From Candidatus Omnitrophota bacterium (lineage in GTDB: Bacteria > Omnitrophota > Gorgyraeia > Gygaellales > Profunditerraquicolaceae): a stretch of DNA of 64,000 bases. The stretch spans positions 2,199-66,198 of the forward strand of contig JASEHM010000001.1 in NCBI GenBank assembly GCA_030018895.1, in the 5' to 3' direction. The notes beneath the pieces are model-generated. The model was not told the DNA's origin. It worked only from the letters and a program-made list of their open reading frames with translations, and searched no databases. Position numbers and translations under genes: made by a program. Positions 1-64,000 of the stretch are shown here, piece after piece (position 1 is the stretch's first letter; the number at the start of each line of letters is the position of its first letter).

Positions 1-3000
1 CTTCAGATTTTAACCTATCTTAAAGGTTTTCAGCTTGACGTCCCAGAGGGATGTGCTGGAAATCCCCTACCTTCTCAAGGTTGGATTAATAAAGGAAAAA
101 TATCAGTAGGAAAAATATCAAAAGACATAGAACTCACAGGCTATTTCTCCTTTATTATAAATCCTGTACAGACAAATAGACGTAAGTTTCAAGCACAGGC
201 AATAGCCACAATCCCTTCAGAATTTTTAGGTATGGCTAAAGAAAAGGATATTGAAAAAATTGAGGTTAATTCAGCTACTTTTGGAGGAAGCGCTAAAGAG
301 CCTCTGGCGCGTACTTTAGGTACAGCGGACATATTTAGTAAAAGCAAAGAGAATAAAAATGATTTTGTGAATAGAATAGACGTTGATATTATTGCCAATA
401 AGAAAAATAAGGAAGAGGCTTTTTGGAATGTAAATCAAAAAACGCATACGTATTTTCAGCAAGGAAAAAAAATAGAAGAGAAATACACAGGTTGGATTGC
501 TGATCCTGGTGTAGTATTTCAAGATAATTTAGAAGTAAAACGCAAGATTAAACAAGAATTGGAGGCAATAGGTCTGAACAATGTTAATATATATTCAGAG
601 CCGAACATAGGAGCACATGTCATTCCCGCGAAAGAGGGAATCCAAGCGTCCGTCGGTGACTGGATGCCCGCTTTCGCGGGCATGACATCCGTTCCCCCGT
701 TCACTGACATATTACCAGATATTATCAGTAACAGTATCACTGTATACAGTCGTGATTCTAAAGGCGAATATGGAAAAAACCCATTTTTCTTTGGCCAGGA
801 ATCAACGCAAGATCCCTCCAGTGGATGGAGCGGCGCTTTTGTTTACGCAGATTTTAAAGGCGGGAACTCCCAAATAATCTATGATTATAACAAAGAAAAA
901 GTTGATAAATTAATAATCGGCGGCTTAATCAATCAAAATTCTACTGATGTACGTCTTATAATAGGAAGGGAAGACAAAGGCATTGAATTAACCAAGGACA
1001 AAGGAATTATTATATCAGAAGGGAAAACAGGCCTTTTAAAGGCTGTGCTTGATCATTATAATGGTGACAATAAACTGTTGAATCAGGAAATTAATGATTT
1101 TATTGTTGTTGCTTTGCCTAAACCTAAACAGGGATTTTTGCCAAACGCAATTACCACTCAAGAAAATATTACAGCTGCCTATAATGTTTTTCATTCAAAA
1201 ATTAATCCAAATGAACAAGATGAACAAGCAAAGAGCCAAACAAAATCTATAGAGAATGCACTTGCGCATTTACAGGGTAGTTATAATGAAGGCCTGAAAA
1301 CAAAAGTAATTAGCAACTTATCTTCTGCTGATTCTTCAGCCACGATAGGCGTTTTGACTCATCTTTGGACAAGCGATAACTACAATTTTGCTGTTAGTGA
1401 AATTATTGGTAAGGTTACCTTGTTTAATATCGGCAGTGACTTTAATGTGTACACTGATAATAGTGTTTTGACAGTTAAGGGTTTTGCCCGTCCTTATGAT
1501 TCTCGGGTAGGCTTTGACAATACAAGAATCATTAGTACGGTTGAAAAAAAAGACGATGATTACAATGTTGACCGTAAAATAGCCGCACTCTCGGGTTCAG
1601 AGGCAATTAATGAGCCAAAGATGAAACTTTTTGCTGATTTTAAGTTTCCTCTTGAAATGTTAATTTTGAATAACGAGAATAACAAAATCATATCAGCAGG
1701 AAAATTAACAAAAACAATAGAGTTTGTTGCTCGTAAGCTTGAGGGATCTGAAAAAGAAGGTTTTCATGTGACTCAGGATAGTTGGTTTCCTGTTTTGTTG
1801 GGTCACTTATTTAACCGTGACAAAGTTAAAAACTTCACAAAAGAAGAAATAGAAACAGCAAACAAAATGATAAAAGAGTTTAAAGAACAGCATTTTACCG
1901 GTAATATTTATCCCCAAATCAGGTTTTCTACGGATGACAAAGGCAGGCCGGATATATCTACTATATCTACGCTTTTTGTCGCAGGTTTACCTGAATCAAT
2001 TTCCGAAGTAAGTGGAAAGAAAATATATGTTCCCTCAGGAGAAAATAAAACCAGCAAAGTAATTACTCTTGGCGGCTTGCTTGGAGATGAAGGCCAATAT
2101 CAAGCTTGTTTGACGCCTAGAAATTATATTGCTAATAAAGAGCTCTTAGAAATATCCGGTTTAGCAGAGTCTAATGCCGCAGTATTTTTCCCTACTGTAA
2201 CAGGATTTTATGGCCGTATACCTCAAATAGGAGAAGTAGAGAATTTAGTATGGTCAGATAAGAGGCCACAAGGCAATGTTTCTTTAAAAATAATTGAAAA
2301 CTCTCCTTTTGAGCCGCTTTTTTGGGGAAAAGGAGGAATGCTTGGTAATGAGAAGCCTTCTGACTTTGGCTATAACAAAGAGATTAAATATCAGCAGTTT
2401 AACAAGGTTTTAACAGACGCTAGAGTTAATCAGGATGAAAAAAGCGGACATAATGTGCTAATAGGTCTTTATGGCCGTATGCAAGAAGGTAATGCTCAGG
2501 ATAAAATTTTTAATAGCTATAATGCTATTTTTCAACCTTTCTCAAAAGAAAAAAAATATTTTTCCTCCCGGATTATTGACAATACTCCTTACACAGAAAA
2601 CTTAAATTTTGCTAGTTTTGAAGGCATTGGTTCTTCAGAAGGAGGCATTAACTGGAATAAGGGAGAGATTGAAACAAGCATATTTGAGGGCAAACAGGAG
2701 TTTATGAGTCAAAAGATTGTCCCTAAGATTATATCCAATATAGTGTTTTTAGACTGGGATATAAAGAATTTTAAGATTGAGAAGGATTTAGCCTCTGGGA
2801 AGAAGAATAAGTCAGAAGGGCCTGTTCTTGATGGTTTTCTTTATCTACGTTTAGCAGAAGCAGAAAAAAAAGGGCTTTTACGCGGGGTTGTTTCTAAACT
2901 GAATGTAGAAGCAAAAGATGCAGGAGGGTATGCTTTAGCTTCTGGGAAGCTCTGGGAGGGTTTTGATTTCTTTAGCCCATCCGGAGGAGAGATAAATCCT

Positions 3001-6000
3001 TATTTTAGAGGACAAACCTTTTTAACTAACAATGCTGAGTGGCAGGTTAATTGCTGGGATAAAGAATCAGTTGAAGGGTTCAAAGATGGTAAGGGTAAAA
3101 TTAATCATATAAAAACAAACTCGGATAAGAAATTCACTGGTATTGATTTTGCAAATAAAGGGATTAAGCTTATTGATAGTGCTTTTCTGGCTCTTTACAT
3201 AGGCGAGGCTAAGAAAATTAAGTTTAGTGCAACAGGAGAACTTACCTTAGGCAAGGATACAAATTATGCCTTAAGTTTGTGGATAAATAATACTAATAAA
3301 AAGATAAGTAAGTTTTTGAACAATGTTAATAAGGGTTTAGGGTATCAGCTTGTTGTTAACCCTAAAACCAGAGATTTGGCAATAGGTAATACCCCCGAAA
3401 GCATTCCTTTTATCAAAGATGAAAAAATTAATCCGAAAATTTTTGAGAATTTCGCTTTTTCAATTATAGAAGAGGGAAAGATTAAAATCAGCAGAAATTT
3501 TGGGATTAATAATAAGGAAACAAGAGATATTATTCCTTTAGAAAAAACAAAAAATATCGCAAGCCTAACATCAGGTAGTATTCTTCCTTGGTATAAGGGA
3601 ATAAGGCAGATTCCGATTACTGCAGGGTATAATGATATTGCCATAAAGATTGATTCTTCTGGCTCAGGTAGTAAACCTTCTACTTCTAATAAATTAGCCA
3701 ATAGCTATTTTGAAATAGATCATGTTGCCCAGATTACTGAAACTGCAAATGAAGGAAAATACGGAAAGATAGGAGTGGTTAAAAAAGGGGAAAAACTTCA
3801 TTTTTCGTTAGTTACAGAAGAAGGCAAGGTTAAACTGTTTGATTTTGCTTATAAGATTGTTCCTGGGTTTGAGGGGGTAAATGTTAATCTTCCTCGGCCG
3901 GAATACTTTGGCCGTAAGGAAGAAAATGACATTGCTGTGCGGACAAATGGAGGAGAGTTTCTCAAATACGCTTCGGATGTATATATGAATAAAGGAAGAG
4001 CCAATGCCAATGGAGAGTGGAAGTTCTATGGGCATCGTCTGATAAAAATAAAAACGACTACGGATTCTTCTATTTTAGGGGCAGACAAAGATAATGCTGT
4101 TTCCCGACAGAATCGTTCCATAATCTTTAAAGATGATGAAGGGAAATTTGAAGTGAAAGGGATTGTGCCGGTTTATAAGAAATGGGGAGGCGATGTTGAG
4201 AATATTGGCACAATTGAACAATTACAAGACTCAAGCGGCCTGAAATGGAAGCGCTTAACAGGAAACATAGCTAAGTATTTAACTGCGGATAGTCAAAAAA
4301 ACTATAGCTGTAAAGGAAAATGGCAGGTACAATTTCCTGCTATTCTTTTAGAGAAAACAGACGATAATAAATATAATATTACAGGGGTGCAAATGCTGGT
4401 TGGCAAGGGAGGAGCTCCTTATAAGCTTCCTTCTGCGTCTTTGTCTGAAGGCAAAAAAGTAGGAAAACGGGCTGACAAAGCTGACAAAAAGGAATTAATA
4501 ACCACGCTTCGGGGTTTAGGCAGAGATATTGTTGAGCTTCCTAGAGGAAGTTATAGCATAAGGCTTGAGAATAAAGATAATAAATTTTCTTTAGGTAACC
4601 TTGATTATTCAGAATTAGGCACAATGAAAATAATTTTCCAGAAAAACTTAGCCATTCCGCATAATCAAAATGAGGTTTCTTATTTTTATCCTAAAAATAG
4701 CAAAGGAGAGGTAGTTTTGCATTACTTAGGAGACAGCCCTGTTGTAGAAGGTGTTCAAGGCGTTAAAGATCTGGTTCATATTAAGCATGATTCTTCCCAA
4801 AACACAGGGAATATAATACAGACATCTTATCTGGGTTTAAAACCGGAAGAAGTTTTGAAATTAATAAAAGAGAATCCAAGTGCACTAATTAAGGTAGGTA
4901 AATTTGGAGGAATTAAATCCGGGGAAAAAGCAGAAATTACCTGGATTAAAATGAGTAAAAATAACCTTCAAGGGGCGTATGATCCCAATGCCCCTTCTGA
5001 GATTGTTTTCGTAGATGGCAATTCCAAGGGAATTTATATAACTCCCCAGGGAGTAACAATTTCTTCTCTTGCGGAAAAAATAGAGATAAATGGCAAAAAA
5101 GTTGAAGATATATCTCCTGTTGGTGTATATTTTTATCGAGATGAAAAAGGGCAAAAAGGATTTTACTCCTGGGGTCCTTTAGGGACAAAAGAAATTAGAA
5201 TGTTGAAAGACGGAGAATTTAAATATTATACTATTCTTCCTGACGGCAGAAAGATTAATGGGCGGATAAATCCTAATCTTTTTAGTTTAGAAAATGCCAG
5301 CCTGATTAGTTTTTCCTCAGGTCAACTTGCTTTTGTCTATCAGGGGAAATTTTTTGTAGGAGAGGAAGAAATAAAGGCTTTAAATAAACTTCCCCAAGGA
5401 GTTTTAAATACAATTTTAAATGGACAGCAAACCCAGAAGATGTTTTCTGAATATGTCAAGGGGATTAAGGAAGCAGGAAACCCCAAAAAAGCAGAAGAGC
5501 TTAACAAGCATTTATTGTTTAGGGGTGGGGCTATTATAGACGATGAAAACCGAGATAAAGAAGCATTAGGGTTTGATATTTTTAGCCAGGAAATTAAGCA
5601 AAAAAGATTTAAAGATTTAGGAATATCTAAAAAAGATGAAGCTTGGCTGAGAAAAGAAGCTACTGAGCGTTTGCAAGGTTTAAGCCCGGAAAGTAAAGAA
5701 TATAAATACGGATACAGTAAGCTCTTTTCTGAATTTACCAATAAATGCGGCAAGCAGATGCTCGCTAAAGGATTTGTTCCTTTGGCTGTAGTTGATGATG
5801 CAGTAACTTGGGCTGATGCAGGAGTAGGGGTAGGGGCAACTGCGCTTGTTGTTACGGGTTGTGTTTTTGCGGCTCCTGTGATACTAGCGGGAGGGGCGGT
5901 AGGGGCGGTAGGGACAATACTTATAGGAACAGGCGTGAGTATAATAACAGGACTTGCAAATGCGGAATTGTTAAAATACTATACCACAGGCACGCACTTA

Positions 6001-9000
6001 GACTTTCTCGATGGCGGCATTGTAGCTGGCCTATCAGTTATTCCTGGAGGAGGAGTAGTAGGCCGGCTTGCTGCTCCTGCAGTAAAACAGTTTACTAACT
6101 TGATACGGCCACTAGGAGGAATTTTAGAAAAAGCAAAGTGGGTTCCTGTTATAGGAAAAGCTTTAGGAAAATTAAAAGAAAAAGTTTCTCCTGTTACTGA
6201 GATAGGACAGAACATAGCGCAACACACTCCACAGGGCCTAAAAATCGGGCTTAAGGCTATTTCCTCTCCGTCTTCAATGGCTTATATTTCTTATCAAACA
6301 GGCAATATAGCAAAGATTACTACTTCTCCTTCTGTCTATTATTTAGATGGCCAGGTATATATCCCGGATAAACATAGGGCATTCCGGCCTTTAGGCTTCG
6401 GACAAGGAACATTTGCCTTAGCCACAGGTTATGTCTTAGGCGGGACCGGGCCCTTGGCAAGGGGAATTAGCACAACAGGAATTCCCGTAATAAGTAAGGT
6501 GGTATCTCAGGGATTGTTATGGGGTACGACTTCTACAATTGTAAGAACAGCAGGCCAATGTTTTCAAGGCAATGGCGCCAGACTTACAGCTGATGACATT
6601 GCAGGATTTTATTGGGATGGTTTTAAAAGCGGTATGATATTTGGCGGTATTTTTGCAGTGGGTTCTGGAGTAAGTAGATTAGGCGCTTTAGCCAAAAATC
6701 CTTTAACAAGTTCAACCATAGGGACAATAAGTCAATTCGGCGTTTTAGTTAACAAGTATCCTTTAATAAGCTCAACCATAGGAGGCGCAGTAGGATTTCC
6801 ATTAGCTAAGACAGTTATAGAAAGCGGATTTTCTTTAGACAACCTCTATTCTAATTATTCTGATCCTGTTAATTATCTTAGAGGAGCAATTATTGGCGCA
6901 GGAATAGGTTTTGGGTATGGAAATTATACTGGCATAGGCAAGGGTTTATTAAAATCATTAGGCGCGGGTGTGCTTAAGAATGGCAATTTCTTTAGCCGGG
7001 GACTCTATGGCGGGTCCGTAGGACTGGCAACAGGCATGACAGGAAATGTTTTACAGGGAAATTATATAGGAAAGGATCATTTGGGAATAAAGCTAGCAGT
7101 AGATAGCGCAGGGTATTTTCTGATAGGAGGTTTAACTGCGGCATATTTAGGTGGACAAGGTAAAAATATTGTTAAAGAATTAGCTGGAACAGAAGCTAGG
7201 GAAATAAAAGTGTTTCATACCTTTAAGCTTAAACCTGCTGTTGGCACAGAGCTTCTTTATAATCAGGCTTTGGCTGGCGCTATTGAATGGACTTTGGTTA
7301 GCCCTGCATTTACTGCAGGCGGCGCTTTTTGGGAAGGGTTAAAGGGAAGTTGGAAATATTATGGTAAGGAATTAAGCGCAAAAGATGAAAAGCTATTTAA
7401 GAATTTTGTTTGGTGGCAACCCGGGACATGGGTAATGCAGGTTCCAAGTGAAGATGGAGGGTATGGATTTAAGAATTTAACCTGGGGAAGCGTACTTGAG
7501 TCTGCAATTGCAGGGCCAGAATCAGGTTTATGGATGAAGCCAATGTTTGGGGTGTTTCAGACAAAAGGGAACAATCCGGTTATAGGAGAAGGAGGAATAA
7601 TCCGCAAAATTATAAATGTAACAACTTGGGGAGGTGCAAAGGTAGCTGACAAGTGGAAATCTGTAGGGAGAATAGCTGAGAAGGCATTCAAGATCAGCCT
7701 TAAACCAGGAGAAAGTTTTAGCGAACGATTTGTTTCCAGCAGGGCTTATTCTGCGCTTGCAGCTCAGTCTGTTTTTTCATCTCTCTGGAAACAAGGATTA
7801 AAAACAAAAGCTGTAATAAATGGTTTAACGCCTTTTGTTAGCTGGATTGATTCTTCGGTAATCTGGATGCCGGGGTTTGTTACTGGCATTGGGGCTGGTA
7901 TAGATATGGCTGACAAAGCAGCTGCAAAATCTGTTGGTGTTTATAAGGTTAGTCCTCAGGAAACTGAACAGGGAACTGTTTATTCCCGCACAGGCTATGT
8001 ACCAGAAGGAATAAAGTCTTATGTTAACTGGCTGTTATTTTTTATGATTCCTTCTTATGAGCCTTCTTTAAAAGAAAGATTAGGCAAAGCCTTGTCCTCT
8101 CCAGAAAAAGATAATTTTTATAGCTTAATGAACGCAATCAGAGAATCTGGCGCTGGCTCATTAGAGAACGTAGTAAAAAAGAGCCAGATTTATACTTCTT
8201 TTGAGCAGACTAATCAAGAACTAATACAAAGGATATTAAAGAAGACTTTTAAACTTAGTGAGGAAGATGTAAAAACAATTGCAGAAAGCGGTCCAGACTA
8301 CGTAGATGTATTACCTATATTAGAACAATCCGTAGGTAAAGTAAAAATAGATACCATAAAAGATTTTTTAAGCAAGTTCCAAAGCGCGCAGGAGAATTAT
8401 AACCGAACAGATGAAAATAATAAAAATATTCAGGATGCGGAAAAAGATATTAATGAAGCGTTAAATATTGCCGCAAAACAGCAGGATACAACGTTTAATT
8501 CTGCTGAAAAAACAAAAGCCCGCAAAATTCTCAAAGATGTTTTAGGCAATTTTGAGGTTTTACCTAAGCAGACTTATGAAAATTTAAATCTGATTAGAGA
8601 TAGTATAGCGAGAGGCACTGGGTTAAGGGGAGTTTTAGCGATGTCTTTGGATTCAGCGCTGAAATTAATGGAAGATTGTGCTACTCATAAAAAATTGAAT
8701 AATATTAAATCCGGCAATCCCAGGGAATTTGAATTTAAATTTGGCGGAGATTTAATAAAGTTAGAATTAGCAGTTACTAACGACCTTATTAATAAAGCTA
8801 CGGATATAATTAAAGAGAGGCTGCGCTTAAAAGGAGAGTTTAAAATAGATTTTAAGCAAAAGTTAACTGAGATTAAAAAGTTCTTTAACCGTATTTTAGA
8901 GAAAGATATTCCCAATGAAAAATTGCGTCAGGCAGAAGTAGAAGGCTTGATGATTAAAGTTGACTTCTTAAAGGAAGCTCAGAGCAAAGCAGAAAATAAA

Positions 9001-57000: not shown

Positions 57001-60000
57001 GAAGGCCAAGGGACAGAGCTTACTATAGGCATTATGGTAGAAACTAAAAAGGTAGTTAATAATATAGATCTAATAATTAAGACTATAGAGAAAATCCCCG
57101 CAATAAAGTTTTTTAGTGTTGGATCCAATGATTTAATTCATTTCTTTTACAATATCCACAGGGATAATCTCCAAGATTATAAAAAGTATTATGAGGGGAT
57201 TGCCCCCCCGCTTATTCTCAAAAAGATTTTAGAAGTTGTAAAAAAAGCCAAGGAAGCCGGTTTAGAAAGTAGTTTATGCGGAGACTTAGCAAGGAATGAG
57301 CAATTCTGGCTGGTCTGGTATTATTTTAAGCATAATTATAATGTAGAAATTCTTTTAAGTATGCCGGATATAAAGATCGCAGAGAGATTTAAGGTTTGGA
57401 TAAATTATATTGATAATCATTTAGAGCAGATACCATGCTGGAAAAACTTAACTGATTTATTAAAGAAGATGTTTGTTTATAAATATGATGATGAGATTGA
57501 TGAAAAATATTGGGATGCGTTAAAGAAACAACTAAATGCTGTGATTAGCGAAATACAAGCGGTTTTAAATAAGGCTATAGAGAAAGACAAAAATGTAAAG
57601 ATAGAACTAAAAACAAAAGAAGAACTGCCTAAAGCAGAAGAGGAGAAAAAGTGGTCTGATAATGAAGGTAATATAATTGGGTTATTAAAAGGTTTCCATG
57701 CTTATGCCCAGGGTCATCTAAGTGGTTTGATTAACTCATATTGGGAGAAAGAGTTGCGAGTAAAGATAGAGTGTTTAAAAGAAGAGCAATGGCAGGAGTT
57801 TTATGATGGTAGCGTTTTATGGGACATATTTGATTTTATGGAAGCCGAATTTATTGTGGGTAGTTCTAAAGAATTTAGATTTAGCGCATCTGAGCATTGT
57901 TCATTAGGCAAAGAAAAAGCAGACTCTCTTTTGAAAGGGTTTTTAGATGAGTTTGTAAAACAGCTTTGCGGAAAAGACGATGAATTTGGAGGCAGAAGGT
58001 TTGATTTAGAGGTTCAAGAAGAAGATGCTGTAAAAGAAACAGAACAAACGCAATGTAATAAGCTCCCCCTAGTAGAGATAGTACGTATTTTTGAGATCAA
58101 TCCAGGCAAAAAAGCGGCTTCTTCTCTGATGTCGCTAGAAAAGCATGTGGTGGATATAAAAGAGTATGCGGATATAATAGCCAGGCTTTTGCTTTGCAGT
58201 ATGAAATATAAGGGGAATAATAGAAACGAGTTGAATTGCTATTCTCTACGCGCTGATCTTATTCAAGTATTACAAGAAAAGCTTGGTTATGACAAGATAA
58301 AAAATATAAAAATTATAGGAATGAGCGGTGGGCGTAAGAAGTTGCCTCTTATACCAATAGATACGGAATTGGGGGTAGGCCCTGAGAAAATATATTACTT
58401 AGGGTTGCCGCTTGATAAATTAGGAGGATTGGGAGACCCTCATCAGAAAGGGCCTATTACTGGCCATGCATGGTGCTCAAAAAAAATAAATAGTTTGCCG
58501 GATTGTTATTTCCTTAAAATTGAGGTTGGTTTTAACAAAAATGCTGAAAAATTAAAAGCTCTTATCACTAATAATATAAACCCATGCATTGGAAAGGTTG
58601 ACTGGGATTCATTAGCTAAGGGTTATCTTGAATTTTGTTTAACAGGATCAGGTAAATCCATAAAAGATCTTAAGATAGGGGTTTTGTGCCGGCCTTATAA
58701 CCGGCAGTTAATTGAGGCATTGATAAGGGCTTTTAAAGCCAAAGGCGCAGGTGTTCCAATTAAAGATTATGTTCGGATAGCCAAAAAATGCAAGAGACAA
58801 GGTTCATTTAATAATGGCGGGATTTTTCTTTATCAAAATGACGATTGGTCAAGTAGTATAGATATGGATGAGAAAGATGGTTTAGATGGCTTTATGGGAA
58901 TAGGCGGTTATCCTGAAAAAGGAATGAGCAGCTTGATAATTAGAAAAAAAGGTAAAGGGGCATTGACTGGCCGTTTTATCAGCCAGGAGTATATTGAAAA
59001 AACAAATAGAGCGGTAACTGCGCCAGAACCTTTTGTCCTGACGAACTTTAGTCCTGGGGAGTTGGCAAATTTTGATAAAACGGGTATTAAAACTGAAAAT
59101 AAAGAGCATCTCAGGGTTTTTACTGACAAGGATATTATCTCTGCGGATATAAAGGGAGAAGATATTATTTTACTAATTGGGTTAATCGGAGATGCTGCTT
59201 ATTTTGGCTGTCGTATTTCAGGAATTACTGTGGATGCTCGGAAAGGATATATAAAAGCCAATCTCTTAGAGATTAATGAGAAAAAGAAGGCTTGTGTAAT
59301 TGAAATAAAATACCCTTTAGTATCTATTCAAAAATATTTAAAAGAGCTTTCTTATGCAAAAGATCCAAAAGTTTATAAAAAGTTAGCTTTTGCCTGCGCT
59401 GAAGCCGGGGACTATCATCTGGCAAATGAATATCTTAAGAAGGCTCTCAAAGACAAAGAGTCTCAAATATTATTTTACTATATTAGGGGTATGAACATTC
59501 AGGCGCAGAGTAAAATAAACCCTAATATTAGGGCATTAAGACTATATATGAAGGCTTTTGCGATTTGGAAAAAGCTGGTTCCTCAAGGACAAGCAGCGCT
59601 TGAAGAATTAGGTTTGGACCTGATAAAAACGATTCGGCGCACCCGGGTTTTCTTAAGAATTCAATACCAGCTTAAAGGAAATTGGCTTGAAGCAGTAAAG
59701 CATTCTTGGCCAGCAGTAAGGATTTCACAAGAGGAGTTTGAAACCATTTTTCAGCATAATCGGCTTGTTTTAATGTCCATTGTTGAAGAATATTACAGGC
59801 TTATTAAAGATGTAGACGAATCCAATATTAAAGCCAAGATTGAATTAGCCTATGAAGCATATCTTAATTGGGAAGAAAAGGCAACGAATAAGACCAGATC
59901 TTGCATGGAGGATTATAGAAAATTTTTAGAATTCTATCAAGGAGATTTCTTTGTCTGCTTGCTTTTTGAAACTGTTTTTAGGGGATTTAAATCTTCTGAA

Positions 60001-63000
60001 AGGGCAATTATTTGTTGGAAGATTTTGTATATGAAATTAAATAAAAACTACCGCGAGGATTTATTATGGGTTATGCGGAATGAGTCTGAAAGAAATAACC
60101 TTATAAATGATTTAAAGCAGACAATAAATTTTACCGATGAAGAAAAAGAAGATTTTAGGATTCCTTTAGAAGAAGGGATATCTACTCGTACGAGCAAAAA
60201 AATTCTTTCCCAATTATTACGGTTTTATAGTAAAGAACCAGTTATTTATTTAAGGAACCAGGAAGTAGCTTATAGTATATTTAGGCAATATTTTAGCGAA
60301 GCGCTGTTTTTAAGAATCTTTGGTCATTTTCAGAGCAGCCAAAAACATGTTGAAAAAGCTATCCATGCCTGCGAGCAGATATATAAGGTAAAGGATTTAG
60401 GCCTGTTTATGACAACCTTGCCAAGGGATACAATCAATTTTTATCTAAGATTAGCTGATATAGAAGAAAATTCAGATAGAAAAAAACAATTCTTGCAAGA
60501 GGCGCAAGGATTGTGCTGCGGGTTTTTAACTGGTGATTATTTTAAAGAGATTATAGCAGAAGCTGATTCCCAATTAGCTTCTAGAGAGTTTATTAAATTA
60601 ACAGCATGGAAACCTGAAAGTTTGTGGGAAGGCCTTGCAAAAACTTCATTAGAAGGACTGCTTAGGAAAAAAATTCAGCTATATGTTTTTGATATGAATG
60701 GGGTCAAGAATATTCAGAAAAAGATAGAAGAAATATTATTTAAAAAATCAATAATATTCTTCGGAGGGACAAGCAGAAGAGCAGGCCTTAAACCACTTCG
60801 CAATTATCCTGTTTCTACTAATATAAATATAAAAACATCAGAAATAAATCAGGATAATGTTTTTTTATCTATTGACCTAAAGAAAAAGGTAGACTATTTT
60901 AAGGGAATAATTTTTTCTATCTTACTTGAAAAGAAATGTGAAGAAAATTGGGATATAAAAGGCAAAATAATTCCCTATTTTCAAGGGCCCTTGATATTAA
61001 TAACAAAAAAGAAAGAGCAAATTCCTGAAGTATGTAATGATTTGGTAGAAGAATTACAGGGGGCCGTTGAAAATCAATATACAGTAGAGACAACAAGTAT
61101 TGGTATGGAAGTTTCGTCGATTGACCGAGGAGATGTACTGCTTTATTTAGCAGAGCAGATTGCTAATAAAGACAAAAAGAACCTTATAGATTTATTAGTG
61201 CAAACCTTTGTCGTAGGCAATAGCCGCGCAGATCTATTTATGCTCAATATTGTAGCCAGTCATGGCGGGTTAGCTATATTTGTGGGCCAGAATATTCCAG
61301 AGGGCCTATCTAAAAAGGTTCTTGTAATTCCGCTACAAAATCCTCAAGGAATAGAATTTCTTATAGAGTTAATTGCTAAGGCCTCCAACTCGGCAGGTAT
61401 AGAAAATCATCTCCAGAGCCTGCAAAATTCTGTTAGTGAAGAGGAAACTGTTTCCAGCGCAATCTTGGCAGTGGGATGCAGTGAAGTTGACATAAGCTGT
61501 TCTGCTTTGTTGAAAATGAAGGGGTTCGTCGGTTCGCCAGTTAGCCGGTTACTTGAAACCGCCGCCTTGGCGAAGGGGGATGGGGGTCAGTTCTGTTGTA
61601 ATTCTTTGCCTATCAATGGGGGAATTCTGGGGACACAAGACTTAATTCGGAGTACTGATTTGCCATCCGCTATTGCTATCGCCTCGCCGGTGAGGGATTT
61701 GTTTGCAACTTCTTTTCCCATAATAGATTCCGCAGAAACGACACTAAATATACTGTTTTTATCTCGTTTAGGCGCTCTGCGTACAGGTACAAATGCCCCG
61801 CCATTAGTTGTTAATAATGCCGCCTTTGTCTCGGTATTATTTCGCACCTATTTAGAGACCTCATCACAACCTACCCCTTCTATTACTATTCCAGAACTTA
61901 TTGTCTGCTATTTATTACTTGCTACTATTAAGGTATCCTTTGCTTCGTCGGCGGTGGAGAATTTATCTACAAGTTTTTCTTTCGCAGGCATTTTTTTGAC
62001 TATTAAGAAAGTGTTTAAAGGGTCGAAGATAATAATAGATAAGGTTATTGGAGTCGGCGAAAATGGATATAGAAAAATAGAAAAAATTATCTGGCAATTT
62101 TTACAGAAAGCTTGGCAATGTATACAGAAAATTCCGGTCGGCTTTGCGCCGGACAGTGAAGGCCGGGTTACCGTTGATGCTCTCATAAAATATCTTTCTG
62201 TGGCTCCTTTCGCAGTAGATGCGACGTTGGAAGCCTTCTTTTCGCAATTGAAAAATCCCAAAGCTCAGGCAGCAATTGCTTCCGGTGGCCTTGGTTTTCT
62301 TGCCGGAGAAACCCTTAATGCTTGGGTCAAGGTATCTCAGCGGGTAGTCGGGTTTATGCCTCTTTATGAAGGTAATATTAACTGGGATAGTGAGGCAGGG
62401 ATACAGCCGATTATCGGGTCAGGCGGCAAACCGCTTACTCTGGAAGTCAATTTTAAGGAGGTCGGGCAATTACAGGAGAAGCCATATAAGGTTAGCTACT
62501 ACATTATTAACGCCAATGGCACTCCGGTAATCCTGGCGCGCCAGCCGAAGATTAACTACGCGCTTTATCCTTGTGATTCGGATAAATATCGGCAGATGGC
62601 TTTCTTAGGTAGGGCATATACGGAATTTTTTAAATATTTAGGCGTTGTCCCGGATATCTTGCGCTTCAATGAGGCGCAGGTATTTTTCCTTCTTACTGCG
62701 ACTGATAATGATGTTGATTGGTTTGCTCGGGAGAGAGAGAGAACTAAAACCGAAAGCCGCAGCGTTCATGAGAATACCAAATACATCCTTTTTACCACGC
62801 ATACCCCGGAAGTAGCCGCTTTACCGAGAGAAAACGTAGGCCGGTTAAAGAACCTTATCGGTAGCGGGATGATTCCGAAGAAAGCAGATGGAAGTGATTA
62901 TGCGGATGGGGAAGAATTGGATTTTGTTCATCATTTAGTTAACGACTCGCGGGTCGTCGTTATCAATGGCGTTTCCCAGGAACACGGGGAAGTAACTAAG

Positions 63001-64000
63001 CTGGTGATTGTACCGGAGGCAAGGGGAAAAATTTTAGCTATAACCAATAGTTCGGATTCCGAGCTATGGCTTAATGAGGAGCTGGCAAAGTTAAAGAAAA
63101 AAGGCACGAAAATAACAGGTCGGATACTTTTCAATGCCGGACAAGAGGCCAAGGAAAAATTAAATGAGTTCCTTGAAAGGGAAATAGGCATCAAATTCAC
63201 CGATCTGAAAAGGCCGTTAGCCGGGTTGGTGCGCCGCTGGGTGGAATACAAAGAGCAGATTATATTCCGCGATATCATGGAATGGTTGGTTGGCGATAGG
63301 GAAGATACCGAGAAGATATACTATTTGCCTTGGAGTGTTGCTGCCGAGCAGATACTTTTCGAAGCGAGGCTGGATGTGGATAGGATTTTCGAAGAGTTGG
63401 TCAAAAAAAATTATATAACGCAGGAATTTTGCGTTAAAGATATCTCCCGAAAATTAGACCAGGATTTTAAAGCCGCTTTTCCGAAATACGGCGAGTCGGA
63501 ATTTGATAAAATTGAGGCTGTTTTACAGTCTGCTATTGAAGGTAAGAAGCTTGCGGTGAATCATGGGTTAGGTATGAATGTCCTTTTAGGCGGGGTTGGG
63601 CGCGACGAGGTCGGCAAGAAATGGTTTGAGCAATTTGAACAGTTAGCTCAAGAAGAGAAATTCAAGGGTAAGTTTATAATGCTTAAAGGTTTGGATATTG
63701 AAAAAATGAAGCTTGCCACGCAGGCAGTTGATGTATGGGTAAGCGAGCCGCGGTCGACGAGAGAGGCAAGCGGGACCAGCGATCATCGCCCTGCCTTTAA
63801 CGGCCATCTTAATATCGCTACCTTAACCGGCGGACCAATGGAATACATTAAGCACGGGACTAATGGCTGGCTGATGGATGTTTTTGCTGGGACAGGTTAT
63901 TCTTTTGTCGATCTTGTCTGCGCCATGCAGGGAGGTGATCGGTATGCGGAGGTGGTACAGCTGTATCGAGCGCGTTCACAGCGGCTCCTCGGTAAATACT
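1..64000 (+). CDS. Internal fragment of a giant multi-domain membrane-associated protein gene. Frame +1 is open across the whole window, at least 21,333 codons, with both ends outside the window.
   Basis: Frame 1 (positions congruent to 1 mod 3) has no TAA/TAG/TGA in any of more than 60 lines I checked, including all repeat regions. The ORF track lists no frame-1 ORF; every minus-strand ORF is 210 aa or shorter and looks like shadow noise. The frame-1 translation is K/E-rich and contains recognisable domain motifs (M23, LysM, HATPase_c, REC, GGEEF, sigma-70, PEP-utilizing, phosphorylase). Confidence 0.8.
619..686. repeat. Palindromic hairpin module of the GTCATTCC...GGGAATGAC / GATGCCCGCTTTCGCGGGCATGAC type. 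It is internal only, without the outer termini.
   Basis: Two adjacent perfect or near-perfect hairpins (ttccc-gcgaaaga-gggaa; gcccgc-tttc-gcgggc). Same module type as at 23,652 and 43,008. In-frame in the giant ORF. Confidence 0.55.
5800..7200 (+). other. Glycine-rich hydrophobic region of the giant protein containing predicted transmembrane helices.
   Basis: Frame-1 translation includes VGATALVVTGCVFAAPVILAGGAVGAVGTILIGTGVSIITGLA, followed by G-rich segments with small-xxx-small (glycine-zipper-like) spacing. Confidence 0.5.
9600..11500 (+). other. Degenerate SF2 helicase-like ATPase domain (DExH-type motif II, C-terminal helicase motifs V/VI).
   Basis: Motifs in order: QKAGGAKS (weak Walker A-like); VVRFDEFH (DExH motif II, about 10,420); LGASGT (motif III-like, about 11,010); ISNQRGATGIDYQGNFDVVVFDG...LLQAINRNLR (helicase C motifs V/VI, about 11,340-11,480). 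Confidence 0.4.
14270..14300 (+). other. HExxH (HEITH) zinc-metallopeptidase-like motif.
   Basis: Frame-1 VALFHEITHSF. Motif-only evidence. Confidence 0.2.
15178..15242. repeat. Truncated left half of the palindromic element (left terminus GTAACAGTTCAGCCCCCGGAAG plus left arm GTCATTGCGAGGAGCGGCAGCGACGAAGCAATCTC).
   Basis: Matches the left end of the complete copy at 19,294. No right half is present. In-frame. Confidence 0.6.
16370..16669. repeat. Composite palindromic element made of several nested hairpin modules, with right terminus CTTCCGAAGGCTGAACTGTTAC.
   Basis: Hairpin gtcattgcgagggcaaagcccgaagcaatctc/gattgcttcgccttcggctcgcaatgac; hairpin gtcattccgagcgagg.../...tcgctcgggatgac; degenerate left terminus gtaacagatcaac. 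In-frame and stop-free. Confidence 0.65.
17330..18040 (+). other. Cluster of predicted transmembrane helices.
   Basis: Long hydrophobic runs, e.g. ILVFAVFVVSSSLPATPLLGLTF, LAVLEFVMAVLIPGKSFGAVLTTVSSTVLLQAVIAASSLIGL, VIIGMSGIAGVGIGFVSANPVLLNFVIGIVAGWLLI. Confidence 0.5.
17511..17780 (+). CDS. Hypothetical 89-aa ORF in frame 3, nested out-of-frame inside the giant ORF, with a canonical Shine-Dalgarno sequence.
   Basis: GGAGG at 17,500-17,504, 6 nt before ATG at 17,511. The ORF is listed in the track. This may be coincidental or a relic start of a captured gene. Confidence 0.12.
   Translation: MCPIKFNELQFNHIVESATGPTVFAAARENGSRHFRLFLINEETGSVRVRNGSANTWEELWGSAHDSIINCLIASRNSCILTYRTRTGF
19294..19429. 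repeat. Complete palindromic (MITE/RPE-like) element with terminal inverted repeats and a central GTCATTGCGAG...CTCGCAATGAC hairpin.
   Basis: gtaatagttcagctcttggaagcg ... gtcattgcgagcgaccgaagggagcgaagcaatc tcaaaaacgt gattgcttcgtcgctgtcgctcctcgcaatgac ... cgcttccaagcgctgaactgttac. The terminal inverted repeats have 1 mismatch. In-frame. Confidence 0.75.
19610..20180 (+). other. Cluster of predicted transmembrane helices. A further helix lies at about 20,860-20,960.
   Basis: YLVILAFVVAFAAAYLMSIPAGSIAALY, LFGLFMACITLAVIMLQYSFTAVIGVM, VSVIVFLIVSLVLITAPEAVLGLAVFVNALIVTLLF. Confidence 0.45.
21880..22075. repeat. Degenerate tandem array (about 6 units of 27-36 bp) built from the ...GCTCGCAATGAC arm of the palindromic element. 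All six frames are open here.
   Basis: Repeated cgcaatgac-gaRRRGgcgcaaaatgcggWcgctYg units. The track shows overlapping ORFs on both strands (21811..22047, 21858..22211 on -; 21878..22225 on +), as expected for a low-complexity repeat. Frame 1 reads ARNDE/ACNDV-type peptide repeats. Confidence 0.7.
22100..22445 (+). other. Peptidase M23 (LytM/lysostaphin-like) domain.
   Basis: NGHEGLDFRA (HxxxD), GIVFYAGEGNGYGKVVIINHNNGYFTLYAHN, GQKIGLVGKSGNAEQIGEMLHFEIR (G-S-G...HxH-like). The motif order and spacing are canonical. Confidence 0.85.
23350..23540 (+). other. LysM-like peptidoglycan-binding domain.
   Basis: YTVRKGDTLWRLF...YQLNPQI...IIYPGENIKI matches the LysM consensus (YtVkkGDTLwsIA...N.l.......i.pGq.l.iP). 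Confidence 0.6.
23627..23785. repeat. Palindromic element, GTCATTCC subfamily, about 90% identical to the copy at 42,976-43,138. Right terminus GAACTTCAGAAAGCTGAACTGTTAC.
   Basis: ttcagaagtaaatcagggtgtcattcccacccctgttttcacgggggtaaactccagcgggaattcaagaggggatgacagaatggatgcccgttttcacgggcatgac...gctgaactgttac. In-frame. Confidence 0.7.
31770..32200 (+). other. Cluster of predicted transmembrane helices.
   Basis: IPVWLRIVLYMVLSALSIWLIPSSL, GIFFIAIVATARLFLG, FWGAVSIVTLGFIVYIIGFVAVNWIFMPIPF, AVLVALSVSPFLDMFFLTYFSIANLM. Confidence 0.45.
33850..34760 (+). other. Large polytopic membrane segment with 8 or more predicted transmembrane helices.
   Basis: VTVWVIILYYLANLNPWFGLAFSLWFTSILLAQAI, ISVAAALLLFIAFASF, IVWLPQIATIVGWLTFIFLLEPV, LLNIANVGLGFILGIVDFVANIM, LSILTGILLLSLPDSLPAWILISCIAIAGSIGFGL. 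Confidence 0.5.
34846..37446 (+). repeat. Copy 1 of the in-frame tandem duplication. The unit is 2,601 bp (867 codons) and has higher GC3 codon usage than its flanks.
   Basis: The offset to copy 2 is exactly 2,601 bp, which is 3 x 867. All five minus-strand track ORFs in the unit recur at +2,601 with identical translations (e.g. 35248..35484 = 37849..38085). Confidence 0.9.
37447..40047 (+). repeat. Copy 2 of the in-frame tandem duplication.
   Basis: See copy 1. Junction ...gaaggattgatgaggaag|aagaaagcagaagagag... The unit begins with a K/E/S/T-rich linker (KKAEERQNAKGSSPVTTSSPIPTLNNTQPDQ). Confidence 0.9.
40290..41340 (+). other. N-terminal half of a glycogen/starch synthase (GT5, GlgA-like) domain.
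   Basis: KVGGIADVAEGLPEA (compare KTGGLADVVGALP); LLLSDWQTGLL (compare HAHDWHTGL), about 130 aa downstream as in GlgA; VTVSQAYAREI...GILNGTPKEWKYITD (compare TVSPTYAEEI...GIvNGiD...WnP.tD). Confidence 0.6.
41340..41830 (+). pseudogene. Decayed continuation of the GT5-like domain. The ancestral reading frame has shifted to frame 3, while frame 1 remains open as atypical Cys/Arg/Leu-rich 'linker'.
   Basis: Frame-1 translation here (GGAGCIDSERCRLGLLRCCRKTREFLFWQGFRVGILLMISLF...) is unlike the rest of the protein. The frame-3 ORF 41568..41792 reads ...EVLQENKGIFVLAGFPGW...SNGEVKGRT...AEIIKG, resembling the GlgA C-domain LLEQGGQLALLGAGDP...YPGQVGV...AHRIYAG. The expected distal GT5 motifs (SRFEPCG, TGGL) are missing. 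Confidence 0.35.
41568..41792 (+). CDS. 74-aa frame-3 ORF with a strong Shine-Dalgarno sequence (AAAGGAGG, 6-nt spacer). It is probably a fossil fragment of the GT5 C-terminal domain rather than an independent gene.
   Basis: SD at 41,554-41,561; ATG at 41,568. The product is globular-looking and GlgA-C-domain-like (see the pseudogene entry). Confidence 0.2.
   Translation: MYRLREVQIRSFEVLQENKGIFVLAGFPGWHSTYDFLIQSNGEVKGRTHDNWQLLTDETAEIIKGKFKEVLTRN
42130..42500 (+). other. Histidine-kinase-type ATPase domain (HATPase_c).
   Basis: N-box IRKIIEHILREIFQNSVKH; G1 IIDNGEGI; G2 GRGLSYLNKLL; followed by the G3-like GEGKGTRVRFFLP. Confidence 0.8.
42630..42975 (+). other. Response-regulator receiver (REC) domain, preceded by an H-box-like segment (FIIHEINNILCTV, about 42,540-42,580).
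   Basis: ILVVDDEENICVILQ...LVLIDYTLPGGDGLQL...IPIFIMTGRS...KPFKFEELLKKV has the acid pocket DD...D, the T/S and the K of the canonical REC fold. Confidence 0.85.
42976..43138. repeat. Complete palindromic element (GTCATTCC subfamily) with both termini, inserted exactly at the C-terminal boundary of the REC domain.
   Basis: gtaacagttcagcgttcagaagtaaatcagggtgtcattctcgcccccgttttcacggggg...gatgccagttttcacgggtatgac...gaacttccggaagctgaactgttac. In-frame (163 bp). Confidence 0.75.
43184..43272. repeat. Adjacent GTCATTGCGAG...GAAGCAATC/GATTGCTTC...CTCGCAAT(TGCA)ATGAC hairpin module without outer termini.
   Basis: gtcattgcgagcccgccacactttgtggcgaggcgaagcaatc acttttttga gattgcttcttgcttcggtttcgcctcgcaattgcaatgac. 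In-frame. Confidence 0.6.
44440..44950 (+). other. GGDEF diguanylate-cyclase domain with an intact GGEEF active site and an RxxD I-site.
   Basis: DSRTGLYNAWYLKEEL...[27 protein letters not shown]...RKTDIVCRYGGEEFMIIL...ADQAVYIAKAKGRNR. Confidence 0.85.
52822..52975. repeat. Second repeat family, full copy. It begins with tandem GGAAACTGTTTCC palindromes and translates in-frame to a Cys-containing peptide (ETVSSAIGTVGCSEVDISCSALKMKGFVGSPVSRLLEIAGSPV).
   Basis: About 95% identical over about 125 bp to the copy at 61,444-61,570. The partial copy is at 54,918-55,000. Confidence 0.65.
53214..53270. repeat. Solo-termini form of the palindromic element: a 55-bp near-perfect palindrome CCGAAGGTAACAGTTCAGCGTTTGGAAG|TTCCAAGCGCTGAACTGTTACCTTCGG with no internal module.
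   Basis: Read directly. In-frame, encoding RPKVTVQRLEVPSAELLPSE. Confidence 0.65.
53690..54480 (+). other. Sigma-70 family domain (regions 2, 3 and 4) embedded in the giant protein.
   Basis: Region 2: GLIGLAEAVERHDYRKGILFSTYADCWIKREI (compare [32 protein letters not shown]). Region 2.4/3: SDIWIPVYM (compare RTIRIPVHM). Region 4.2: SYRKIGELLGYTGERIRQLKKQALLDLKQL. Confidence 0.7.
54918..55000. repeat. Second repeat family, internally deleted copy (caattgggaaactgtc aattgggaaactgtttccagcttaatcgggacagtg...gccggctcggaagtgg).
   Basis: Shares the start (ggaaactgtttccagc.taatcgggacagtg) and end (gccggctcg) with the copy at 52,822. Confidence 0.5.
56280..57330 (+). other. PEP-utilizing enzyme domain (PtsI/PPDK/PEP-synthase-like): phosphohistidine mobile domain plus C-terminal TIM-barrel.
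   Basis: CAGTPQAHYALLAESERIPVFII (compare GGRTSHAAIVARELGIPAVVG; the His is present). GIGLVRTENL (signature GlGLfRTEfL). MFPMVEDVSDLQAI. IGIMVETKKVV. FFSVGSNDLIHF (compare FFSIGTNDLTQY). LCGDLA. Confidence 0.7.
61444..61570. repeat. Second repeat family, third copy (GGAAACTGTTTCCAGCGCAATCTTGGCAGTGGGATGCAGTGAAGTTGACATAAGCTGTTCTGCTTTGTTGAAAATGAAGGGGTTCGTCGGTTCGCCAGTTAGCCGGTTACTTGAAACCGCC).
   Basis: Near-identical to 52,845-52,975. In-frame. Confidence 0.65.
61650..64000 (+). other. Alpha-glucan/glycogen phosphorylase (GT35)-like domain, running off the window end. The PLP-binding lysine is replaced.
   Basis: AIASPVRDLF (compare LAxAVRDRL); ASGGLGFLAGE (compare GNGGLGRLAAC); ILFTTHTPEVAALP (compare VFTTHTPVPAG); DVWVSEPRSTREASGTSDHRPAFNGHLNIATLTGG (compare [34 protein letters not shown]). 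The MK of ...GTSGMK... is HR here. Confidence 0.65.

Follow-up and report, generated by a model that had tools for sequence, protein, structure and literature searches.

A 64-kb stop-free reading frame as a probable internal fragment of an Omnitrophota giant gene with a SecA-like module and a mosaic of enzyme and signalling domains

Seymour et al. (2023) reported open reading frames (ORFs) of over 20 kb in the majority of Velamenicoccia genomes, and cited the giant ORF of V. archaeovorus, which encodes 39,678 amino acids (aa) with 42 transmembrane (TM) segments; its peptides were detected and were three-fold up in attached cells (PMC10066038). West-Roberts et al. (2023) found giants of up to 85,804 aa with many TM segments, divergent SecA DEAD domains and N-terminal C39 or S8 peptidases (10.1101/2023.11.21.568195). 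Their Archaeovorin set consists of giant ORFs of more than 90,000 bp, with the 39,678-aa ORF of Velamenicoccus archaeovorus LiM as its type, and its repertoire includes glycosyltransferases (GT) of families GT5 and GT1, HATPase_c, GGDEF, pyruvate-dikinase-type, HEAT and TPR, NUDIX and methyltransferase domains (10.1101/2023.11.21.568195). It was proposed in the same work that the SecA-like motor helps to insert or export the giant's own extracytoplasmic parts, and cleavage of giants by C39 or S8 was raised as a possibility, C39 usually acting in leader-peptide processing or as a transporter accessory; SecA-like giants were also found in Actinobacteriota and Firmicutes (10.1101/2023.11.21.568195). 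Nielsen & Lui (2026) reported proteins of up to 147,155 aa, counted 5,761 proteins of at least 10,000 aa and compiled a catalogue of 916 proteins, 94% of them membrane-targeted and with strict tandems that are rare and small; PF08323, PF00534, PF02518 and PF00072 are among the commonest families of their Class 1, the 'multi-enzyme metabolic cluster' (10.64898/2026.06.07.730766). Giant ORFs of such architecture have been verified in complete long-read genomes (10.1101/2023.11.21.568195; 10.64898/2026.06.07.730766). Here we describe a 64,000-nt stretch of contig JASEHM010000001.1 (the window), which is very probably a piece from inside a real giant gene, with neither end closed, and of the Archaeovorin or multi-enzyme kind known from the Omnitrophota. 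This degree of confidence covers the identity of the gene; the steps of the mechanism considered below are much less certain.

When stop codons were counted in all six frames of the window, not a single TAA, TAG or TGA was present in the 21,333 codons of frame +1. The remaining five frames contained 1879, 2205, 1494, 1229 and 726 stops, and the longest stretch without a stop in them was 213 codons. From the base composition of the window (A.338, T.285, G.224, C.154; GC 37.8%) it can be calculated that about 7.5% of the codons of a random frame would be stops, and that a run of 21,333 codons would be free of them with a probability of about e^-1670. Outside frame +1, three complete ORFs of at least 150 aa were found, all on the minus strand (210, 198 and 186 aa); frame +1 itself is missing from the ORF listing because it runs past both ends of the window. 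Its translation has a normal protein composition, and 65% of the first codon positions are A or G. Of 425 sliding windows, each 300 nt long, 422 favoured frame +1 under a self-trained codon model (mean log-likelihood ratio +24.5); two of the three others are TM-rich stretches and the third is a linker at nt 41401-41850. Neither tRNA genes nor Rfam matches were found in the 64 kb. For a frame that is stop-free over 64 kb and carries a coding signal throughout, no reasonable reading is left but a single coding sequence (CDS) that extends beyond the window. The original prediction had asserted the stop-free frame of 21,333 codons, stops within tens of codons in non-coding DNA of this composition, a list of ORFs with none in frame 1 and none longer than 210 aa on the minus strand, and a window internal to one CDS of more than 64 kb, and in all of this it agrees with our counts and coding scores. 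Its statement that the gene is comparable to the largest bacterial genes was overstated: at least 21,333 codons lies well within the known range (39,678, 85,804 and 147,155 aa, with thousands of proteins of at least 10,000 aa).

A long frame might also be incidental, with separate proteins produced from internal promoters and starts at the module boundaries, so that the window would be an operon without stops. Many of the modules described below resemble complete stand-alone proteins, and terminator-like hairpins were modestly above expectation (24 against 13.8 +/- 3.6). In addition, the window has a repeat of about 155 nt (R2), with copies on either side of the sigma-70 module and ahead of the terminal GT module. 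This repeat contains the 13-nt perfect palindrome GGAAACTGTTTCC, of which the window has four exact copies where 0.1 would be expected, and a TTGACA-16-GAAAAT match with an in-frame ATG after it. Against this, promoter-like sites over the window were at chance level (50; expected, 53 +/- 8), and pairs of a Shine-Dalgarno sequence and an in-frame ATG were not enriched over synonymous-codon shuffles and rather tended to depletion (AAGGA, 4 against 7.8 +/- 2.2; AGGAG, 1 against 3.4 +/- 1.8), which favours one long product over many small ones. The linkers between the modules also carry a coding signal, and 21,333 stop-free codons need selection for read-through translation. We consider an operon of this kind hardly credible, and treat the window in the following as part of one giant gene.

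Domains were assigned by searching Pfam with overlapping 1000-aa tiles of the translation and NCBIfam with selected segments (Table 1). The resulting map is a sparse mosaic in which most of the translation is dark to Pfam. About 14 distinct Pfam families were above threshold, and the highest copy number was two to three, for the fucose-pyrophosphorylase-like family, by way of a tandem duplication. By Kyte-Doolittle hydropathy, 29 TM-like segments scored above 1.8 and 39 above 1.6, with clusters at aa 1949-1986, 5672-6985 (about 16 segments), 10070-10724 and 11402-11519; a density of about one segment per 550-730 aa is similar to the published value of about 2% of residues. The mosaic that had been predicted, in which membrane segments are combined with a cell-wall hydrolase and with domains for signalling and enzyme functions, was thus recovered with Pfam and NCBIfam.

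In common with the Archaeovorin type, the window has a stop-free ORF of tens of kb, many TM segments, a motor that may be a divergent SecA, with no scaffold or wing domain detected, and GT5, GT1, HATPase_c, CheY-like receiver, GGDEF, phosphoenolpyruvate (PEP)/pyruvate-dikinase-type and cell-wall-directed domains. The N-terminal C39 peptidase of the Archaeovorins is matched in a collinear relative (L008, see below) and in relatives named after C39, the start of the gene lying outside the window. In contrast, the HEAT, TPR, NUDIX, methyltransferase, radical-SAM and SLT domains of Archaeovorins were not detected in the fragment with the Pfam tiles, whereas the window contains M23 and sigma-70 regions 2-4, which are mentioned in neither giant-gene preprint. 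Archaeovorins exceed 90,000 bp, and the frame in the window measures at least 63,999 nt and is open at both ends. Like the members of Class 1 of Nielsen & Lui, the window is tiled by many Pfam families with none dominant, and has a sugar module (PF08323, PF00534) beside a signalling module (PF02518, PF00072), predicted membrane anchoring and mostly Pfam-dark sequence; it differs from them by a perfect 2.6-kb tandem at the nucleotide level, strict tandems in Class 1 being rare and small. Giants built as dockerin or tandem-repeat scaffolds are a different matter, as no dockerin, TSP3, WD, NHL or lectin repeats were found in the window. The window is a divergent addition to an already described class of giants, mid-range and not record-sized at 21,333 codons or more.

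To this point the comparison concerns domain content; it was also possible to follow the order of modules in relatives. When the motor segment was compared with a collection of 5.8 billion proteins, a single match was obtained, a 664-aa fragment with 37% identity. An exhaustive search of 1.84 billion representatives with a two-sequence motor profile gave only 52 matches, mostly of 1,300-7,800 aa (longest, 7,803 aa). BLAST of these matches against the window translation defined a collinear core made of a membrane module (aa about 1870-2790), the ATPase (about 3200-4250) and a third module (about 4480-4811). Five homologues of the Gly/Ala-rich membrane module were found, with 24-35% identity. 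A metagenome scan with the motor profile yielded two closer loci, L007 (ERZ1292640, contig Hain-H43-02um) and L008 (Ga0233421_10000163). In L007 one frame is stop-free across the entire 22,040 nt (7,346 codons); it is 52% identical to aa 1940-4852 of the window over 3,090 columns, and the similarity continues in the same order with the M23 region (36%) and aa 7953-8123 (71%). In L008 stops are confined to the first 140 nt or so, followed (from nt 152 or thereabouts) by 4,545 open codons up to the end of the contig, and the identity with aa 2687-4540 of the window is 50%. The conserved core, as it can be read from these alignments, has the order Gly/Ala membrane module, SecA-like ATPase, putative HExxH module, M23 and a conserved unassigned module. 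For the latter, no match was found with aa 7950-8650 among PDB sequences or in the 5.8-billion protein set.

The predicted product of L008 begins with Met, a TM segment and Peptidase_C39 (3.8e-9). No C39 domain was found inside the window with the Pfam tiles and its first 1,900 aa or so are unlike L007 and L008, so that the real start of the gene must lie upstream of the window. The N-proximal 1,900-2,700 aa of L007 and L008 are unrelated to those of the window, and the interval between the HExxH module and M23 holds a receiver domain in L007 but a large TM cluster in the window. The gene appears to evolve by module swapping around a conserved core. When N-proximal parts of the window were used as queries, aa 1-350 recovered nothing but a palindromic element from GTDB species representatives and aa 251-650 nothing from JGI metagenomes; scans of IMG/VR likewise gave no match. 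Neither these collections nor the 5.8-billion protein set yielded the gene itself.

The products of L007 and L008 were not found in the protein collection, and both loci are themselves fragments of giant ORFs. Protein collections appear to hold giant ORFs as fragments or not at all, which makes them a blind spot of homology searches.

Organism labels were present for seven of the ten relatives that we looked up, and six of these are Candidatus Omnitrophota/Omnitrophica or Ca. Gygaella obscura. Large proteins from Ca. Omnitrophota metagenome-assembled genomes match the window at 21-35% identity. With its core homologous to these proteins and a domain repertoire like that of the published giant classes, the Omnitrophota attribution made in the original prediction is supported, if indirectly. 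The gene could in principle come from another phylum: the seventh labelled relative is assigned to Deltaproteobacteria, the window has no marker gene, and giants of Actinobacteria with SecA_DEAD, GGDEF and receiver domains have been reported (10.1101/2023.11.21.568195). We think this very unlikely, given the six labels in favour of Omnitrophota, the 38% GC and the repertoire rich in GT5, GT1, HATPase and receiver domains, both of which fit the Omnitrophota classes, and the origin of the closest relative, which according to its contig name is groundwater on a 0.2 um filter. The Omnitrophota that bear such giants are tiny and probably predatory. Giant genes occupy a large share of very small Omnitrophota genomes, and the fragment adds to them a divergent member, 52% identical to the nearest relative found.

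The assignment of the ATPase module is less straightforward. It belongs to a group with superfamily 2 (SF2) motifs, and its relatives have in common a Walker A motif AGGKT, DEFH, G-A-S-G-T, GATGIDY and QAINRNxR. Motifs II and III are separated by an insert of about 195 aa, at the site where the preprotein-binding domain is found in SecA. Pfam at E <= 10 returned Helicase_C alone for this module, with no SecA_DEAD and no SecA_PP_bind, and neither the single ATPase sequence nor a two-sequence profile matched any sequence in the PDB. A 12-sequence profile matched DEAD-box RecA2 domains with E = 3e-4 and Thermotoga maritima SecA with E = 0.02; the alignment with T. maritima SecA was the longest of the profile matches and extended from motif III through nucleotide-binding domain 2 (NBD2). 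An AlphaFold2 model of aa 3335-3894 had a predicted local distance difference test score (pLDDT) of 76.8 and a predicted template modelling score (pTM) of 0.69, and a fold search pointed to SecA; this search and the 12-sequence profile were the only ones that did so, both weakly. The sequence identity of SecA and SecA2 to the module is about 13-15%, generic SF2 helicases score almost equally, and the helical scaffold and wing domains of SecA and SecA2 were not detected in the module. The evidence for a relationship with SecA is mixed, and we use SecA-like as a loose name for the module.

Two further parts of the core carry protease-like motifs. In the HExxH module, the pattern HEITH...(23 aa)...NE..D is invariant in the window, L007 and two other relatives (P0022 and P0026) at overall identities of 28-67%, and the spacing from HEITH to NE is gluzincin-like. 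No peptidase family was matched by this module in a profile search or in Pfam, and a three-sequence AlphaFold2 model (pLDDT 44) was too poor for use. In the M23 domain, the HxxxD motif (HEGLD) and the second His are intact and the first His of HxH is replaced by Met (GEMLHFE), so the motif set of active M23 peptidases is incomplete. The same replacement (GEMVHFE) is seen in L007, where the M23 domain lies at aa about 6990-7080 of the open frame, which indicates that the change is conserved and not a recent decay. The best NCBIfam matches of this region, all far under the cutoffs, were DipM, ActS, NlpD and EnvC-type factors. In view of the conserved His-to-Met change, the M23 region may be a LytM-type factor that binds or activates, and not a hydrolase.

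Downstream of the core, the translation contains what appears from domain searches to be a long series of cytoplasmic-type domains that look intact, with functions in sugar-nucleotide, glycogen and alpha-glucan metabolism, a domain like enzyme I (EI) of the phosphotransferase system (PTS), signalling domains and sigma-70. Inspection of motifs showed that the receiver domain has kept its acidic pocket, phospho-Asp, Thr and Lys, and that the kinase ATPase has kept its N, G1 and G2 boxes; an H-box of the kinase was not found in this way. The GGDEF domain scored above the cutoff of TIGR00254 (1.2e-49), with the active site GGEEF and, five residues upstream, the I-site RxxD as RKTD. Region 2 of the sigma-70 module is well preserved (GLIGLAEAVERHDYRKGILFSTYADCWIKREI), and region 1 was not detected in the module. 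The module reached 133 bits, where the NCBIfam cutoffs are 354-580. It is not free-standing, as about 18,000 aa of the frame precede it. Its nearest relatives are ordinary free-standing RpoD proteins, with only about 30% identity. The alpha-glucan-phosphorylase/GT1 stretch sits at the end of the window.

The presence of such domains raises the question of whether the product stays in one piece. It could be a bacterial polyprotein, one chain that built-in proteases, with C39 and HExxH as the candidates, would cut up into enzymes, pieces of membrane protein and a sigma factor set free. The sigma-70 regions 2-4 and the EI-like, GlgA-like and phosphorylase-like domains are normally free cytoplasmic proteins, Peptidase_C39 is found at the N-terminus of L008, and the name 'cysteine peptidase family C39 domain-containing protein' has been given to two of the relatives (P0004 and P0016). 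The invariance of HEITH...NE..D in four sequences points in the same direction, as does the cleavage by C39 or S8 already raised by West-Roberts et al. (10.1101/2023.11.21.568195). On the other hand, the HExxH module is without a peptidase-family match or a usable model, no cleavage-site pattern was identified, the window itself contains no C39, and the usual roles of C39 are those in leader peptides and transporters mentioned above. Overall we regard processing of this kind as rather unlikely; it would refine, and does not exclude, the identification of the window as part of a giant gene.

If the window is such a fragment, the frame would be translated as one very long polypeptide, which would be anchored in the cytoplasmic membrane through TM helices grouped in several clusters. 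Its own SecA-like motor might then help to insert or export the extracytoplasmic stretches of the same protein, and M23 with its neighbours would face the envelope or the cell wall of a host. The C-terminal half could serve as a membrane-tethered scaffold that couples carbohydrate storage metabolism and PEP-dependent phosphotransfer to cyclic di-GMP (c-di-GMP) and two-component signalling.

Self-comparison of the window revealed a single large duplication, in which nt 34843-37443 and nt 37444-40044 are identical with zero mismatches. The GC content at third codon positions (GC3) is 0.43 in the duplicated unit and its GC skew is zero; most modules have GC3 values of 0.25-0.36 and a skew of about +0.2, and in the terminal GT/phosphorylase module GC3 reaches 0.48. 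The 2601-nt duplication is either a very recent in-frame event or an assembly artefact. An artefact could extend further, and the frame might be wholly or partly chimeric or mis-expanded from related loci, with a true gene that is shorter or rearranged. Besides the perfect duplication, the uneven GC3 among the modules (0.25-0.36 in most, 0.43-0.48 in some) and the lack of independent corroboration for the 3' two-thirds would fit with such an origin. A random join, however, keeps the frame one time in three and seldom avoids stops, the coding signal is unbroken through all junctions, and the spacings of all internal repeats are multiples of 3. Moreover, the order and content of aa 1940-8123 recur in two independent contigs from other samples, and similar giant ORFs have been verified in complete long-read genomes. 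We consider it very unlikely that the frame, in whole or in part, is such an artefact.

Several observations weigh against our identification of the window as a fragment of an Omnitrophota giant gene, or against parts of it. Independent contigs corroborate aa 1940-8123 only, and the 3' two-thirds, rich in enzyme and signalling domains, have no such outside support. The taxonomy leans on distant homologues, one of the seven labelled ones being from Deltaproteobacteria, and the window has no marker gene. The Walker A motif of the window is AGGAKS and not GxGKT, and M23 is short of one catalytic His. Membrane topology comes from hydropathy, and the side of the membrane proposed for M23 is tentative. 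Finally, it is difficult to see how a tethered sigma-70 and tethered glycogen enzymes, built into a chain that exceeds 21,000 aa, could function normally without being released.

Apart from the large duplication, the frame has taken up a number of palindromic elements. A GC-rich pair of hairpins resembling repetitive extragenic palindromic (REP) elements at nt 618-690 is conserved at the nucleotide level in unrelated contigs of Alphaproteobacteria and Nitrospiraceae, with unrelated flanks. Further GC-rich palindromic elements were found at nt 23721-23744, 43074-43097, 16417-16446, 19306-19395 and 21892-22072, and the peptides that result from in-frame elements include MDARFHGHDKN, RSNLKIEIAS, HCERPKGAKQSQ..RDCFVAVAPR and ...ARNDE.... 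The hairpin GGATGCCCGnTTTCnCGGGCATGA occurs in four copies (0 expected), and there are three perfect GC-rich hairpins against 0.4 +/- 0.7 in codon shuffles. In comparison with L007, the repeat array at aa 7298-7343 or so is a clean insertion of about 49 aa inside conserved sequence, and the palindromic patch at aa 7878-7929 falls in a window-specific insertion of about 400 aa; L007 is without such patches. A LysM match in the larger insertion is partial and under threshold. There is also an old internal paralogy of about 23-29% identity over some 660-740 aa, between aa 16413-17074 and aa 19385-20121 (nt 49237-51222 and 58153-60363). Taken together, the duplication, the in-frame palindromes, the insertions relative to L007, the R2 repeats and the old paralogy suggest that the gene grows by modular accretion around a conserved core.

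The old paralogues contain no known domain; one copy lies upstream of sigma-70 and the other downstream of the PTS-EI-like domain.

The uneven GC3, the duplication, the repeats and the HExxH module also hint at accretion combined with possible processing. In its full form, such a reading would make the giant ORF an accreting, self-processing polyprotein, with in-frame duplication, captured genes (sigma factor, PTS-EI-like, glycogen, c-di-GMP), in-frame insertion of mobile palindromes, and release of parts by C39 and HExxH. We judge this combination clearly unlikely. If it were true, a released sigma factor could tie contact with a host at the membrane directly to transcription. The locus offers handles on three questions. 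For the growth of such genes these are the perfect 2.6-kb in-frame duplication, the palindromes inserted in frame relative to an orthologue and the differences in GC3; for their indispensable parts, the collinear core including M23 with its conserved His-to-Met change and the 71%-identical module; and for the processing of the product, the occurrence, in one protein, of motifs resembling those of proteases and of domains (sigma-70, for example) that would be expected to work only after release. Through these side observations, ideas on how giant genes grow and how they are processed could become open to test. The phenomenon is a described one and its category is unchanged.

Table 1. Features of the 64,000-nt window, listed by nucleotide position
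Feature	Position (nt)	Strand	Basis and remarks
Single stop-free coding frame, 21,333 codons	1..63999	+	Open at both window ends; stop count, composition, codon score
Variable N-proximal region, aa 1-1939	1..5817	+	Without Pfam domain and without similarity to L007/L008
GC-rich hairpin pair (REP-like)	618..690	+	In-frame translation: ...VIPAKEGIQ...WMPAFAGMT...
Gly/Ala-rich membrane module, aa 1940-2790	5818..8370	+	Conserved; aa 1949-1986 contain two strong hydrophobic segments
SecA-like SF2 ATPase module, aa 3201-4250	9601..12750	+	AGGAKS ~3356-3361, DEFH 3477-3480, GASGT 3674-3678, Helicase_C 3720-3825
Conserved HExxH-motif module, aa 4470-4811	13408..14433	+	HEITH at aa 4761-4765; putative zincin-type protease, motif only
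Main hydrophobic cluster, ~16 TM-like segments, aa 5672-6985	17014..20955	+	Hydropathy
Array of CGCTCGCAATGACG-type repeats (...ARNDE...)	21892..22072	+	In frame; aa ~7298-7343
Peptidase_M23 (LytM), aa 7392-7482	22174..22446	+	Pfam/NCBIfam; HxxxD kept, HxH = M-x-H
Window-specific insertion of ~400 aa relative to L007	22549..23856	+	Holds sub-threshold LysM-like motif and REP-like repeat R1a (nt 23637-23786)
Most conserved unassigned module, aa 7953-8123	23857..24369	+	71% identical to L007
Three smaller TM-like clusters, aa 10070-10088, 10589-10724, 11402-11519	30208..34557	+	Hydropathy
Perfect tandem duplication, two units of 2601 nt (867 codons per unit)	34843..40044	+	Self-comparison; fucose-pyrophosphorylase/fucokinase-like domain in each unit
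Fucose-pyrophosphorylase/fucokinase-like stretches, aa 11882-13275	within 34843..40044 (tandem duplication)	+	Pfam/NCBIfam
Glycogen-synthase-like GT5, aa ~13449-13790	40345..41370	+	Pfam/NCBIfam
Linker of odd composition without stops, low coding score	41338..41880	+	Neither open nor coding in any other frame
HATPase_c, aa 14053-14166, and response-regulator receiver, aa 14213-14323	42157..42969	+	Pfam/NCBIfam, motifs
REP-like repeat R1b	42990..43139	+	90% identical to R1a, frame shared
GGDEF diguanylate cyclase, aa 14820-14980	44458..44940	+	Pfam/NCBIfam, motifs
Repeat R2a	52816..52971	+	Two copies of palindrome GGAAACTGTTTCC and TTGACA-16-GAAAAT match
Sigma-70 regions 2, 3 and 4 (RpoD/SigA-like), aa 17908-18160	53722..54480	+	Pfam/NCBIfam, motifs
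Partial repeat R2c	54930..54973	+	Carries palindrome GGAAACTGTTTCC
PTS enzyme-I-like/PEP-utilising domain (PEP-utilizers_C), aa ~18773-19101	56308..57315	+	Pfam/NCBIfam
Repeat R2b	61437..61572	+	89-96% identical to R2a
Second GT5-like stretch, aa 20759-20891, and alpha-glucan-phosphorylase-family/GT1 stretch, aa ~21079-21293	62275..63876	+	Pfam/NCBIfam; GC3 0.48

One linker in the downstream half, at nt 41338-41880, differs in character from the rest of the frame. The longest antisense ORF of the window (210 aa, nt 41412-42044, minus strand) overlaps it. A frameshift or an embedded antisense gene at this place was ruled out, as no second frame there is open or has coding character, and the sense product, like the antisense one, has no match in Pfam. 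The translated linker is rich in Cys, Arg, Leu and Ser, its GC3 is 0.44, and its coding score is the lowest in the window.

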